Origin: Chlorobiota bacterium
GTDB lineage: Bacteria > Bacteroidota > Bacteroidia > Bacteroidales > VadinHA17
DNA: 64,000 nucleotides
Direction: 5' to 3'
Assembly (NCBI GenBank): GCA_013152085.1
Contig: JAADHC010000006.1
Coordinates: 2,372 to 66,371 of the forward strand
In this document: positions 17 to 16,640 of the stretch, in pieces
How the letters are laid out: each line of letters starts with the position of its first letter
Position numbering within the stretch: position 1 is the first letter of the stretch
The notes under the pieces: model-generated
The model's database searches: none
What the model was told of the DNA's origin: nothing
What the model saw: only the letters and a program-made list of their open reading frames with translations
Program-made: the position numbers and the translations under genes

Positions 17-907
17 ATGAATAAAATATCATTCTTTTTAATATTATTGTTTATTCCGATACTTGGGTTTACACAGCAAATTCCGCTAAATACCCAATAC
101 ACTTACGATCTTTACCAGATCAATCCGGCGGCGGCCGGCAGTACAGACGGGATGCCGCTTTCCCTGTCGGTACGAAAACTCTGGCTGGGCATTGACGGCT
201 CGCCTTCGATACAAACCCTGAGTGGTCATATCCAGGTGGTTGACCGCATGGGTGTAGGGGCAAAAATTTATAATTTCAGTGAGGGTCCGCTGCGCAATAC
301 CGGCTTTGAAGGAACGTATGCCTATCATCTGCCGCTGGGTGAGGGCAGTACCAAACTGGCTTTTGGACTGACAGCTTCTTTCTTTCAATATAGTTTGGAT
401 AAAACCAAACTGGATGTCCAGGATCCCAATGATCCCGCCCTTCAGGGAGACAGTAAGAAAATGGTTCCTGATGCAACTTTCGGAACATTAATTTACAATG
501 AAAAATATTTTGCCGGGATCACGATTCAACAGCTTTTTCAGGGAAAGATAAACCTGGGAACCCAGGGAATTGCCGATCAGAAAAGAGTACGACACTATTT
601 TGTACACTGGGGTTATAACTTCGATATTAACGAGGATATTCGTTTACAACCCTCCGTACTATTCAAGTTTATTGAAGCTGGGGTGATTCAGGCCGATATC
701 AATACCCGGATGACTTACCGGAAAATGATCAATTTCGGGTTGTCGTACCGTACCGGAGATGCATTGAGTATCCAGCTGGGCTATCAGAATGATAACCTGC
801 TGTTCGGGTATGCTTACGACCTGGCTTTATCGGATATCCGCACGCAAACCAGTGGTTCACATGAAATCGTTTTTATATACAAACTTCCCAACTTCATTAA
901 AAAATAG
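17..907 (+). CDS. Type IX secretion system membrane protein, PorP/SprF family
   Basis: 296 aa. N-terminal signal peptide, then QQIPLNTQYTYDLYQINPAAAG, the typical PorP/SprF N-terminal signature. Beta-rich with an aromatic C-terminus. Confidence 0.85.
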   Translation: MNKISFFLILLFIPILGFTQQIPLNTQYTYDLYQINPAAAGSTDGMPLSLSVRKLWLGIDGSPSIQTLSGHIQVVDRMGVGAKIYNFSEGPLRNTGFEGTYAYHLPLGEGSTKLAFGLTASFFQYSLDKTKLDVQDPNDPALQGDSKKMVPDATFGTLIYNEKYFAGITIQQLFQGKINLGTQGIADQKRVRHYFVHWGYNFDINEDIRLQPSVLFKFIEAGVIQADINTRMTYRKMINFGLSYRTGDALSIQLGYQNDNLLFGYAYDLALSDIRTQTSGSHEIVFIYKLPNFIKK

Positions 908-14779: not shown

Positions 14780-15574
14780 TTAAAAACGGATTTTTATTCC
14801 GGCATTCGCCTGAATTTCATTTATACTAAATACAAATCCTGAAATCCCTTTTACAGCAGAAATGAGCTGAAGTCTCAACTGTACTGCCGGACTTAAAGTA
14901 TAAGCCCCATCCAGTCCAAACATCCAATGATCAATGGTTCTGAAGTTCATAAAAAAATAATTGCCGGTTATGAAAGTCAGCATGTGTTGATTACGGTTCA
15001 TAAACTGCCAGGATAAGTTAAACAACGGAAAAAGCTCATCTGTTTCGTGGGTCCAGTCAAACGGGGAATGAACCTTTTGATCAGCGAAATCAGGTGAACG
15101 GTATCCCATCCCCGTATGAATACCTACCCGGCGGATTGCCGATACGTAAACCAGGGCAACAACTTGATTTTCACCGGTTGAATAATCCGGGTATTCCAGG
15201 TGGGCGGCGTCAACATGAAAAGTCATCCAGGGAAAAAGACCGGGAATGTTTTGTAACGAAAGGGCTACTGTTCCTAAACCCCTGTTTTCGTTTAAATGTA
15301 GCCGTATACCCAGGAAAAGGGTAAGCCGGTTGGGGAATGTATATGATGAAATATCCTGTAGTGAAATCCTGTTGGAGACTCCGGATTCGTATTGATAAAA
15401 AAAGGACGGGCTGGTCGTAAATCCGGTATCGGGATGTGTCTCTTCAGCAGAAAGAGATAAAATGGAGAAAAAAAATAAAAATAGGGATAAAACCACTTTG
15501 GAGGGAATCGGGAATAACCTGTCTGATAACCTGTCTGGAGGGGATTGATATTCTGACGGAACAAGCATAAACAT
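14780..15574 (-). CDS. Hypothetical outer-membrane beta-barrel-like protein
   Basis: 264 aa. Hydrophobic signal-like segment, alternating beta pattern and a C-terminal ...GIKIRF aromatic end. 1 nt upstream of the metallophosphoesterase gene. Confidence 0.5.
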   Translation of the reverse strand: MFMLVPSEYQSPPDRLSDRLFPIPSKVVLSLFLFFFSILSLSAEETHPDTGFTTSPSFFYQYESGVSNRISLQDISSYTFPNRLTLFLGIRLHLNENRGLGTVALSLQNIPGLFPWMTFHVDAAHLEYPDYSTGENQVVALVYVSAIRRVGIHTGMGYRSPDFADQKVHSPFDWTHETDELFPLFNLSWQFMNRNQHMLTFITGNYFFMNFRTIDHWMFGLDGAYTLSPAVQLRLQLISAVKGISGFVFSINEIQANAGIKIRF

Positions 15575-15754
15575 ATTTTAATGGCATATATTTTATAGTT
15601 CAAAGATAGGATTTAATGGAAAGCCACGAATTCACAAATTTCAGGTTAATTTTTTTTTTACCACGGCGTTTCCGGTTCTGGCAAAATTGGTCATAGGAAA
15701 AGGTTGAAGTATAACAAACCCGGTAGTAAAGGATGTTTTAACAGAAACAGACCG

Positions 15755-15849
15755 GAATACTACCGGCCATCTTTTTCTGATTCAATAATATATACCGTAA
15801 CAGGAGGTTTCACGGTTTATCTAATTGTGTGGAGGCTAGGGGAGTCGAA
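15755..15849 (-). repeat. Direct repeat copy A (tRNA-Ala 3' 20 nt + 16-nt spacer + first 59 nt of GIY-YIG gene)
   Basis: 94/95 nt identical to 16124..16218 at an offset of 369 nt. The single difference is t15761 versus c16130. Confidence 0.95.
15760..15813 (-). pseudogene. Truncated 5' fragment of a GIY-YIG nuclease gene
   Basis: Encodes (GTG)MKPPVTVYIIESEKDGR, then TAG. The intact copy has TGG (Trp) at that codon. Similarity to the intact gene ends a few nt later. Confidence 0.7.
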
Positions 15850-15912
15850 TGCATGCCGCCCTGCGGGCGAGCACACTCGAATCTGTCAGATGACAGATTC
15901 GGTGCCCCTGAC
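15830..15912 (-). pseudogene. tRNA-Ala 3' fragment (variable loop/T-stem ... acceptor 3' end) interrupted by a 55-nt insertion
   Basis: On the minus strand the order is GTCAGGGG, then 55 nt, then TTCGACTCCCCTAGCCTCCA. The flanks match positions ~46-53 and 54-73 of the adjacent tRNA-Ala. Confidence 0.7.
15850..15904 (-). other. 55-nt hairpin-rich insertion at the T-stem/T-loop junction
   Basis: Minus strand CACCGAATCTGTCATCTGACAGATTCGAGTGTGCTCGCCCGCAGGGCGGCATGCA. It has a 10-bp GAATCTGTCA/TGACAGATTC stem, a CGAG-TGTG-CTCG stem and a CGCCC-GCA-GGGCG stem. Confidence 0.8.
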
Positions 15913-16182
15913 ATCTGTAAAAACAAATTTTTCTTTTTGAATATACTCCAGGATTCTTGCTCTGGATTTCAAATTTTTAATTCTGCGTTCACACCTTAAA
16001 GCTTCTGTACGGGTTATAAATTTCTTAGATGCAAATAAATGCCAGGGAGTAAACTTTTTGGTATACGTTGAATAACCCCGGTTGTGTTCATGAATTCGTT
16101 TATCGGGGTGCATGGACTGGCCCGAATACCACCGGCCATCTTTTTCTGATTCAATAATATATACCGTAACAGGAGGTTTCAC
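15886..16182 (-). CDS. Small GIY-YIG nuclease family protein (UPF0213/COG2827-like)
   Basis: 98 aa with a GTG start 16 nt after the tRNA-Ala 3' end. GIY-YIG core VYIIESEKDGRWYSGQS...KRIHEHNRG...PW...RTEALRCERRIK. The last ~9 codons and the stop lie in the tRNA fragment and hairpin. Confidence 0.85.
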   Translation of the reverse strand: MKPPVTVYIIESEKDGRWYSGQSMHPDKRIHEHNRGYSTYTKKFTPWHLFASKKFITRTEALRCERRIKNLKSRARILEYIQKEKFVFTDVRGTESVI

Positions 16183-16218
16183 GGTTTATCTAATTGTGTG
16201 GAGGCTAGGGGAGTCGAA
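16124..16218 (-). repeat. Direct repeat copy B
   Basis: See copy A. Covers the 3' 20 nt of the intact tRNA-Ala, the spacer and the GIY-YIG 5' end. Confidence 0.95.
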
Positions 16219-16274
16219 AACCCCTGACCTTTTGGCTGCCAGCCAAACGCTCTAGCCAACTGAGCTAAGCCCCC
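16199..16274 (-). tRNA. tRNA-Ala (anticodon GGC) with an atypical 9-nt T-loop
   Basis: Hand-folded sequence GGGGGCT TA GCTC AGTTGGCTA GAGC G TTTGG CTGGCAG CCAAA AGGTC AGGGG TTTTCGACT CCCCT AGCCTCC A. It has the G3:U70 Ala identity pair and no encoded CCA. The T-loop has two extra T residues relative to the canonical 7 nt. Confidence 0.8.
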
Positions 16275-16311
16275 AAAATAAAGAAAGAACATTCCAAAAT
16301 AGCCTGCACTA

Positions 16312-16430
16312 CAAACGCTCTAGCCAATCCCGAAACGGTTGAAATCTTTGATTTCATGACCGTTTCGAGGACTCTCGATTTGCCGGCGGAATCGAAGATT
16401 CCGGGCAAACCGGAGCTGAGCTAAGCCCCC
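16312..16430 (-). pseudogene. tRNA-Ala 5' fragment (positions 1-31) interrupted by an 88-nt insertion in the D-loop
   Basis: On the minus strand the order is GGGGGCTTAGCTCAG, then 88 nt, then TTGGCTAGAGCGTTTG. It then diverges, with no anticodon loop, T-arm or 3' acceptor. It shares the ATTTT 5' flank with the intact gene. Confidence 0.75.
16328..16415 (-). other. 88-nt double-hairpin insertion between tRNA positions 15 and 16
   Basis: Hairpin 1 is TTTGCC-CGGAATC-ttc-GATTCCG-(cc)-GGCAAA. Hairpin 2 is CGAAACGGT-ca-TGAAATC-aaa-GATTTCA-ACCGTTTCG. It also contains TCGAGAGTCCTCG, similar to TCGAGTGTGCTCG in the 55-nt insertion. Confidence 0.8.
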
Positions 16431-16640
16431 AAAATCCTTAAAGAACCGCTTTAGGAAAGGCAAAAATAATGATTTTTCGGTTTTGCAAGAAAAAAGCCGT
16501 GGAAATAATCAAATTGGTTTAATTTTTGCATTAAAATTATGTGTAAAAGTTATGCAGCAATAACCTATTAATGAAAAAAAAATTCAGATGTTTGTTTTTG
16601 CTGTGAGATTTAATAATTTTATAGCCTAAAATTTTGAACA

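Follow-up and report, generated by a model that had tools for sequence, protein, structure and literature searches.

Within the window, by which we mean the whole 64-kb stretch of DNA that was analyzed, the gene for an intact alanine transfer RNA (tRNA), tRNA-Ala(GGC), is followed on the minus strand by a gene encoding a small GIY-YIG nuclease, and both lie between partial copies of the same tRNA that are split by palindromic two-hairpin modules. The parts of this locus are given below in the order in which they are read on the minus strand.

15752..16446, minus strand: whole feature, slightly wider than the 15755-16430 first given
16431..16446, minus strand: upstream copy of the tRNA leader, GTTCTTTAAGGATTTT, 16 nucleotides (nt); 31-nt direct repeat D2, 87% identity
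16416..16430, minus strand: tRNA-Ala fragment nt 1-15, GGGGGCTTAGCTCAG, an exact match to the intact tRNA
16328..16415, minus strand: type I palindromic two-hairpin module, 88 nt, in the D-loop after tRNA nt 15, without target duplication
16312..16327, minus strand: tRNA-Ala fragment nt 16-31, TTGGCTAGAGCGTTTG, end of the 5' copy; repeat D4, 16/16 match to the intact tRNA
16275..16311, minus strand: 21-nt junction and second leader copy (16290..16275)
16199..16274, minus strand: intact tRNA-Ala(GGC) with a G3:U70 pair (ARAGORN; Rfam tRNA 57.9 bits)
16183..16198, minus strand: 16-nt spacer from the tRNA to the nuclease gene, CACAATTAGATAAACC, without a terminator hairpin
15886..16182, minus strand: GIY-YIG nuclease gene, 98 amino acids (aa), GTG start (Pfam PF01541, 9e-13)
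15905..15912, minus strand: tRNA fragment nt 46-53, GTCAGGGG, the 5' strand of the T-stem, overlapping the end of the nuclease open reading frame (ORF)
15850..15904, minus strand: type II palindromic two-hairpin module, 55 nt, at tRNA position 53|54
15830..15849, minus strand: tRNA fragment nt 54-76, TTCGACTCCCCTAGCCTCCA, opening the 98-nt direct repeat
15752..15829, minus strand: second spacer copy and first 17 nuclease codons, closed by a TAG at 15762..15760 (TGG to TAG)

The initial annotation had recognized a near-complete tRNA-Ala(GGC), a 98-aa GIY-YIG gene starting 16 nt after it, and a second copy of this gene ended after 17 codons by a TGG-to-TAG change. All three are borne out: ARAGORN and the Rfam score confirm the tRNA, "near-complete" being due to an extra TT, the ORF spans 16182..15886 with the PF01541 match listed above, and the truncated copy is present. 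The 95-nt direct repeat that had been reported at 94/95 identity with a period of 369 nt was recovered with this period, but its extent and identity had to be revised. The two copies (16218..16121 and 15849..15752) are 98 nt long and 96/98 identical, begin exactly at the first T-loop base and lose their similarity at 15752; a 36-nt core of the repeat occurs twice, against 0.00 occurrences expected by chance. Similarly, the tRNA 5' fragment (nt 1-31) and the 3' fragment (from about nt 46) are both present, but neither is contiguous. The former is split after nt 15 by the 88-nt palindrome, whose in silico removal yields exactly tRNA nt 1-31 (junction test, 20/20), and the latter is split at the T-stem/T-loop border by the 55-nt palindrome, which had been overlooked. 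The palindromic modules, the most distinctive part of the locus, had in this way escaped the annotation. As for its proposal of three fused tRNA-Ala/GIY-YIG units, the downstream 1.3 units are shown, but the upstream fragment is not demonstrated to derive from a unit, because such hairpin-split 5' duplicates (here nt 1-15, module, nt 16-31) commonly occur elsewhere in the absence of a nuclease gene, as seen in L011, L013 and many loci from metagenomes.

Two further details of the locus concern the tRNA borders. The final nine codons of the nuclease gene extend into the tRNA fragment and the type II module, and the same overlap of the T-stem fragment with the end of the ORF is found in L083, L084 and L150. 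Furthermore, the intact tRNA carries two extra T residues (16220-16219) between T-stem and T-loop, which give it a T-loop of 9 nt and are absent in all 18 related tRNA-Ala genes compared. Their position corresponds to the 53|54 border, the same point at which the 55-nt insert lies in the partial copy.

Orthologous loci were retrieved with the divergent TonB neighbor gene as a query, which gave 80 Bacteroidales loci. A tRNA-Ala(GGC) gene was found upstream of the TonB gene in 37 of the 60 loci scanned, and the upstream leader copy of the window lies at the position where the tRNA of these relatives starts, about 210 nt from the TonB gene. In a profile search of the TonB-retrieved loci, a GIY-YIG gene was detected at the orthologous site only in the window and in L009, where it is truncated after 48 codons. 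The closest relatives, L001 and L003, whose TonB genes are 81-82% identical to that of the window, share the TonB, p264 and Metallophos neighbors and represent empty sites: the tRNA is followed by a terminator hairpin, located where the window has its terminator-free 16-nt spacer, no nuclease gene is present, and the site is about 0.4-0.5 kb shorter. Conversely, L082/L083 is a filled site with a TonB gene of 76% identity, a tRNA identical to that of L003 and a nuclease 65-67% identical to that of the window. Its right end is built as in the window (GTCAGGGG, a two-hairpin insert, the tRNA 3' end), after which the unit repeats. The comparison of orthologous tRNA-Ala loci thus revealed presence/absence polymorphism at an otherwise conserved locus, as expected of a homing endonuclease.

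The nuclease family and its linkage to tRNA genes

The window nuclease consists of a single domain covering residues 6-74 or more of its 98 aa. It belongs to the GIY-YIG superfamily, as judged by the domain and by the conserved Tyr, Tyr, Arg, His/Asn and Glu residues: in an alignment of 51 sequences, the columns of Y8, Y19, G21, R29, H33, N34 and E65 are invariant or nearly so. A profile search of the PDB returned 1zg2 (1.8e-18) and 1ywl (2.2e-14), then SLX1 (1.6e-8 to 7e-7) and I-TevI (4.8e-3). The AlphaFold model (pLDDT 92.8) has an alpha/beta fold matching GIY-YIG structures, and the top Foldseek matches were UPF0213 and Slx1 proteins (E 2e-4 to 8e-3, TM 0.53-0.71), while UvrC and I-TevI gave E values of 0.7-3.6 (about 3 for I-TevI). 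By sequence profile as well as by fold, the protein is therefore a member of the Slx1/UPF0213 (YhbQ-like) clade and is not SegB/I-TevI-like. Proteins of the Seg/I-TevI kind combine the catalytic domain with a C-terminal region containing NUMOD, zinc finger or helix-turn-helix motifs, at about 200-250 aa, and no such region is present in the window protein, which is a minimal Slx1-type domain without a DNA-binding domain. No NCBIfam family matched it, and a check for phage origin gave a negligible PHROG match. A word-index protein search returned only the window protein itself. HMMER found 2213 relatives at E<=1e-3, mostly of 80-100 aa and at most 52% identical to it, and a later profile search added a relative that is 67% identical (P0155).

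The initial annotation had proposed that this small gene travels with, or homes next to, tRNA genes, and had suggested looking for GIY-YIG homologues beside tRNA genes elsewhere. Nine family members (P0003, P0155, P0156, P0154, P0152, P0170, P0174, P0200 and P0210) were picked by their rank in the protein search, eight of them being additionally required to sit on a usable contig. All nine independently fetched members have a tRNA gene on the same strand, ranging from overlapping to 463 nt away and lying within 200 nt in eight cases, and all nine are flanked by partial tRNA copies with hairpins at D- or T-loop positions. The tRNAs concerned are Ala, His, Pro, Asn, Met and Gln, and the lineages include Bacteroidales, KSB1, Parcubacteria and others. 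In the 1.75 Mb of sequence examined, every nuclease domain with a tRNA in its locus shares the strand of that tRNA (24/24), and 20 of the 24 lie within 400 nt of it. The linkage has also left traces in the proteins. A set of 150 unbiased representatives of the family includes 56 proteins that are extended N-terminally by at least 12 aa, and translated-tRNA peptides occur in 27 of these 56, compared to 2.1 in shuffles. In 14 other representatives, the C-terminal tails are translated tRNA 5' ends, e.g., RGVAQPG, and P0002, P0142 and P0151 are read-through tandem units. Finally, in a neighbor-joining tree the nucleases cluster by tRNA type and by the side of the tRNA on which they lie, five Ala-3' nucleases forming one clade and five Pro-5' nucleases another; in L169, one member of each kind flanks a single tRNA-Pro. 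Together with the polymorphism, this association strongly supports the proposal.

These data bear on the simplest alternative, namely, that a tRNA gene prone to recombination underwent no more than the usual local tandem duplication and decay, and that the GIY-YIG protein is a housekeeping repair nuclease whose location is accidental or reflects a cellular function related to tRNA. The window alone cannot tell such a history from a selfish cassette, and UPF0213/YhbQ-type proteins are indeed widespread and poorly characterized. However, the tRNA linkage of 9/9 independent homologues across phyla and at least nine tRNA species, the empty sites in close relatives, the existence of truncated copies and the recurrence of the same hairpin design at the same tRNA positions in unrelated loci already disfavor this explanation, and we regard it as highly improbable.

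A large share of family members sit on very short contigs (0.4-2 kb), which fits repeated units that break metagenome assemblies, and gene callers often run the ORFs of the family through adjacent tRNA genes.

All loci are built alike: the nuclease gene has an intact tRNA on one side and, on the other, an overlapping partial copy of that tRNA which bears hairpins. Two arrangements were observed. In the 3' type, the intact tRNA is followed by the nuclease gene, tRNA nt ~46-53, the module and nt 54-76 (e.g., window, L083, L084 and L150). In the 5' type, tRNA nt 1-~20, the module and nt ~21-33 precede the nuclease gene, which is followed by the intact tRNA (e.g., L086, L116, L146, L152, L169, L211 and L213). 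Eight loci (L081, L083, L084, L086, L087, L150, L152 and L213) contain tandem arrays with units of 290-430 bp, in which only the tRNA at the edge is intact and the inner copies bear modules. This indicates that the amplified unit is the nuclease gene plus a module-bearing piece of tRNA. L150 is a close parallel of the window: an intact tRNA-Ala(GGC) is followed by the nuclease gene, a nearly full tRNA copy, which carries modules after nt 19 (type I) and at 53|54 (type II), and a truncated nuclease gene. An intron-like organization, in which a complete tRNA would be interrupted with no intact copy nearby, was considered and rejected: most interrupted copies are truncated, and an intact copy adjoins in most loci with enough flanking sequence.

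Integrative elements that target tRNA genes are classically recognized by duplicated tRNA 3' ends, and the contig is metagenome derived. We nevertheless consider it least probable of all that the locus is the remnant of an integrase island, its fragments being att duplications, or an assembly artifact. No integrase was found among the genes neighboring the locus, the flanks are syntenic with those of empty-site relatives, the extra DNA amounts to only ~0.5 kb, the repeat reaches into the nuclease gene, and 5' fragments are present besides 3' fragments. The artifact is countered by the presence of the same architecture in many independent assemblies, including NCBI genomes, and by repeats (<=98 nt) that are shorter than typical reads.

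Some loci showed additional peculiarities. In L213 (1751-2235), six tandem 81-nt pseudo-tRNA-Pro units lie between the nuclease gene and an intact tRNA-Pro(GGG), and in these units the 17-nt anticodon arm is swapped for a 17-nt hairpin, TCCCGCCTGAAGCGGGA; L210 and L169 are similar. In L121 (~160-240, minus strand), two direct copies of another palindrome, which is GC rich (CCTGCCTGACTGACTGCCGCAGCAGGCAGGCAGG), interrupt the T-loop of a partial tRNA-Phe copy beside the nuclease gene, and a type I module lies further downstream, before the terminator. L212 contains a match to the Rfam LOOT RNA (1316-1435) that is below threshold (36.5 bits versus a gathering threshold of 46.4), about 0.75 kb from a Parcubacteria nuclease-tRNA-Gln cassette.

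Palindromic two-hairpin modules

The type I family was defined as two adjacent, covariation-supported hairpins of the form NNN-CG..CG-A-N'N'N' and NNN-T-CG..CG-N'N'N'. Its consensus reads TCC-CGAAA..TTTCG-A-GGA and then TCC-T-CGAAA..TTTCG-GGA, so that reverse complementing the first hairpin gives the form of the second. The type I module of the window folds as DNA with -30.2 kcal/mol (z = -8.25) and scores 83.4 bits (E = 5e-16) with the covariance model R1, of which it is the sole match in the window. The idea that the modules are a dispersed repeat of this genome was dropped, since neither BLAST nor the covariance model found other module copies in the window. The 55-nt type II module (DNA fold z = -5.61) has the same bracket design, with a 3-bp clamp, a 1-nt bulge and a CG step in common with type I, and homologues with compensatory changes occupy the same tRNA position in L083 and L150. 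Its membership in the type I family is unconfirmed by R1, the link between the two being this design and the L083 and L150 homologues only.

A 21-base module pattern gave at least 120 matches in metagenome contigs and none in viral contigs. We extracted 144 distinct module sequences, corresponding to 106 physical modules because the quasi-symmetric modules are read on both strands. In a 38-sequence alignment, 96.2% of the cells are paired, and double changes occur in 19 of the 28 pairs. The double-change cells number 196, compared to 53 ± 6 in shuffles, none of 500 shuffles reached the observed value, and slid controls collapsed. One-sided (G-U) changes are nearly absent (8/1045 cells), and the orientation of the module relative to the tRNA is not fixed, both of which suggest a palindrome acting at the DNA level. 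A four-way pairing of the module, in which outer TCCCGAAA would pair with TTTCGGGA, was rejected since asymmetric modules (TGC..GCA and then TCC..GGA) covary within hairpins and not across them. At 38 junctions, removal of the module restores a contiguous tRNA without target duplication, the sites falling at nt 10-21 and 53-61, and the cassette boundaries lie at fixed tRNA positions. When the locus and seven related loci were searched against Rfam by E value, only tRNA was found, besides chance-level or below-threshold matches not overlapping the modules. A known RNA family, ribozyme or group I intron was likewise discarded, as no curated covariance model matched.

The main rival explanation starts from the modules. 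The modules could be the primary mobile elements, similar to REP/BIME sequences, the GIY-YIG protein being a structure-specific nuclease that mobilizes them in analogy to a RAYT. The D- and T-loops of tRNAs would then be favored hairpin-loop landing sites, with the duplications and arrays as by-products of repair. This is in agreement with the large number of metagenome module sites, of which most lack a nuclease gene and some sit within the loops of others, with the precise insertion without target duplication, and with the Watson-Crick-only covariation and unfixed orientation, which point to a DNA-level hairpin. Moreover, the nuclease has a Slx1-like fold, Slx1 cuts branched and stem-loop DNA, and such hairpins are present in every nuclease locus examined. 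On its own, however, this explanation accounts neither for the nuclease gene always lying between overlapping tRNA pieces on the tRNA strand nor for nuclease clades that track the tRNA type. GIY-YIG enzymes are furthermore not known as transposases, and about 0.9 Mb of related loci contain modules only at the tRNA-Ala locus. We view it as an unlikely alternative.

Modules were also seen in other settings. In L097, L106, L107, L113, L166, L177 and L178, many type I modules lie outside tRNAs, within heptamer-like imperfect tandem repeats (e.g., CAGTCTC/CAGTCTT or AACCATT/AACGATT) that are particular to each locus and present on both flanks. Nested modules were found in L101, L157, L183 and L189, where a mini hairpin, TCCCGAA(A/G)(C/G)TTCGGGA, sits in the first-hairpin loop of a full module, which suggests that hairpin loops in general are an insertion target. 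Among the orthologous loci, L004, L006, L008 and L009 carry a single hairpin ~50-110 nt upstream of the tRNA-Ala with D-stem-like flanks, laid out as GCTC, CTCGAAAATCA..TGATTTTCGGGA, CTAGAGCG, and in L006 (469-555) a full but decayed module, without a nuclease gene, follows the tRNA at a distance of 52 nt.

Proposed mechanism and relation to known systems

Taken together, the data make it fairly probable, in our judgment, that a selfish mini-nuclease cassette colonized the resident tRNA-Ala(GGC) gene by nuclease-driven homing and was amplified via tRNA homology. The cassette would have two components. One is a minimal single-domain Slx1/UPF0213-type GIY-YIG gene, which shares the strand of the tRNA and is not separated from it by a terminator, so that it is probably transcribed from the tRNA promoter. 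The other is a partial duplicate of the tRNA gene with a D-loop or T-loop precisely split by a palindromic two-hairpin DNA module. By analogy with SegB, a phage homing endonuclease described below, the nuclease would break a tRNA gene either at its D-loop or where T-stem and T-loop meet, and the break would be repaired by homologous recombination from a colonized copy. The intact tRNA and the partial copy that flank the nuclease gene would serve as the two homology arms, so that the nuclease gene and the module would be copied in, i.e., homing would proceed by tRNA homology. In the partial copy, the module would sit at the exact position of the break and destroy the target there. Out-of-register repair between repeated tRNA pieces would generate tandem arrays, deletions, stumps and possibly the TT footprint. 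In the window, the outcome would be one full unit, a downstream stump of a second unit with 17 codons, a hairpin-split 5' relic upstream and the TT footprint at 53|54.

Several observations weigh against such a cassette. The protein has no DNA-binding domain to which its target specificity could be traced. In most loci, nothing protects the intact tRNA next to the nuclease gene, the TT change being found only in the window. Modules far outnumber nuclease genes, only ~10% of them having one within 700 nt, and many lie away from tRNAs, so the module may be independent of the nuclease. In addition, R1 did not detect the type II module. As to the relatives, the patchy distribution could be explained by ancestral presence and later losses, and the identity between the window and L082 nucleases (65-67%) is not far from that between their TonB genes (76%).

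Regarding specificity, there is an improbable further reading, namely, that the minimal nuclease takes its target specificity from the adjacent module-bearing tRNA copy, being either RNA guided or structure guided. A transcribed tRNA-derived guide or handle RNA may pair with the matching tRNA gene, or the cloverleaf or hairpin structure of the DNA may itself be the recognition signal. If true, this would represent a new class of programmable nuclease on a ~90-aa GIY-YIG fold that could be retargeted by swapping the flanking tRNA. In its RNA-guided form, homing would rely on transcription of the module-bearing partial copy into the handle or guide RNA of the nuclease. Consistent with this, nuclease gene and tRNA invariably share a strand, the gene borders immediately on tRNA-derived sequence, no DNA-binding domain is found in the protein, the specificity of which appears to follow the adjacent tRNA, and module-bearing copies are kept in every array unit. 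Opposed to it are the near absence of G-U pairs in the stems, which favors DNA over RNA structure, the variable orientation of the modules to the tRNA, their frequent occurrence without nuclease genes and away from tRNAs, and the lack of any Rfam family match. At 85-98 aa, the protein is very small for a ribonucleoprotein nuclease, and RNA-guided homing seems to us a rather improbable mechanism.

Whichever the source of its specificity, the proposed cassette has a precedent, contrary to the initial annotation, which knew of no established mobile unit of this kind. SegB of T4/T6 phages is a free-standing GIY-YIG homing endonuclease encoded in a phage tRNA gene cluster, where it cuts within tRNA genes at a motif, RAWTSGAAC, that is the complement of the T-loop sequence GTTCSAWTY (PMC2330249; PMC13096335). 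It leaves 2-nt staggered ends, promotes recombination-dependent tandem amplification of tRNA and segB, and is statistically linked to tRNAs of many isotypes (PMC2330249; PMC13096335). The window element resembles it in having a GIY-YIG nuclease gene beside tRNA genes. The two differ in that SegB is a phage protein of the I-TevI/Seg clade with an added DNA-binding region, whereas the window element is chromosomal and its Slx1/UPF0213-like protein consists of the catalytic domain only; palindromic modules and module-split tRNA copies are not described for SegB.

By profile and fold, the best matches of the nuclease are Slx1 and the UPF0213 proteins BH0048 (1zg2) and EF2693 (1ywl), with which it shares the conserved Tyr, Arg, His and Glu. 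Slx1 is a repair enzyme that acts with its partner Slx4 and carries a RING/PHD domain; it is not a mobile gene, and the window nuclease differs from it in being single domain. The hairpin-forming modules are possible substrates of the nuclease, by analogy with the activity of Slx1 on stem-loop DNA. No report of tRNA linkage or selfish behavior of UPF0213 proteins was found in the searchable literature.

The modules resemble REP/BIME sequences and REPINs in being short palindromes with a conserved stem base, in forming inverted doublets and in their DNA-level structure, as well as in flanking and greatly outnumbering the associated nuclease gene. The resemblance is an analogy only: the REP/BIME enzyme is an HUH Y1 (RAYT) transposase, and the window enzyme is a GIY-YIG nuclease. 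A REPIN has a Y1 HUH gene flanked by REPs, and at the window locus there is no Y1 domain, the only associated gene being that of the GIY-YIG nuclease. REPs carry GTAG/CGTC tags, and we know of no report that they precisely split tRNA genes.

With tRNA-targeting integrative elements, the cassette shares an intact tRNA of which the element supplies or duplicates a part, partial copies marking the boundary. Unlike these elements, it has units of 290-430 bp, forms tandem arrays, involves both tRNA halves and contains hairpins inside the duplicate, and the window locus does not show the combination of a tyrosine or serine integrase with tRNA 3'-end att repeats. Group I introns with homing endonucleases in bacterial tRNA genes likewise join a selfish nuclease to the interruption of a tRNA gene. 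Such introns are ribozymes of at least 200 nt located in the anticodon loop. In contrast, the modules are 16-119-nt palindromes in the D- or T-loop of nonfunctional partial copies, and the nuclease gene lies outside the interruption.

Literature searches on GIY-YIG, tRNA and Bacteroidetes, on REP or MITE, on UPF0213/YhbQ and on the module sequence gave nothing relevant beyond SegB, and no description of tRNA-linked UPF0213/Slx1-type nucleases or of the module was found in the open literature. The general kind, a selfish GIY-YIG gene exploiting tRNA genes, is thus known, while the protein clade, the chromosomal and phylum-wide spread, the module-split tRNA copies and the module family appear to be new. 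The cassette would add a widespread chromosomal counterpart of SegB, a selfish nuclease of the Slx1/UPF0213 clade present in Bacteroidota, KSB1, Parcubacteria and other phyla. Through it, the long-uncharacterized UPF0213/YhbQ-like mini-nucleases gain a possible biological role and are tied to an abundant, undescribed family of palindromic modules that insert precisely in tRNA D- and T-loops. It would also account for the pseudo-tRNA fragments, tRNA-adjacent tandem arrays, contig breaks and ORFs miscalled through tRNA genes that are seen in metagenomes. It raises the question of how a ~90-aa nuclease without a DNA-binding domain achieves tRNA-type-specific placement, and its units of 300-430 bp are small enough for experimental reconstitution.

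Neighboring sequences

A 12-nt exact tandem duplication (ATAACCTGTCTG twice) lies at positions 15514-15537 of the window, near the 5' end of a 264-aa ORF (14780..15574, minus strand). This ORF has no Pfam match, and its identity in the closest relatives is only ~41%. Beside the tRNA-Ala of the empty-site relatives are tandem TonB-like paralogues (L001, 5181-5864 and 6001-6681; L003, 6001-6687 and 6818-7501), which are 78-82% identical to the single copy of the window.

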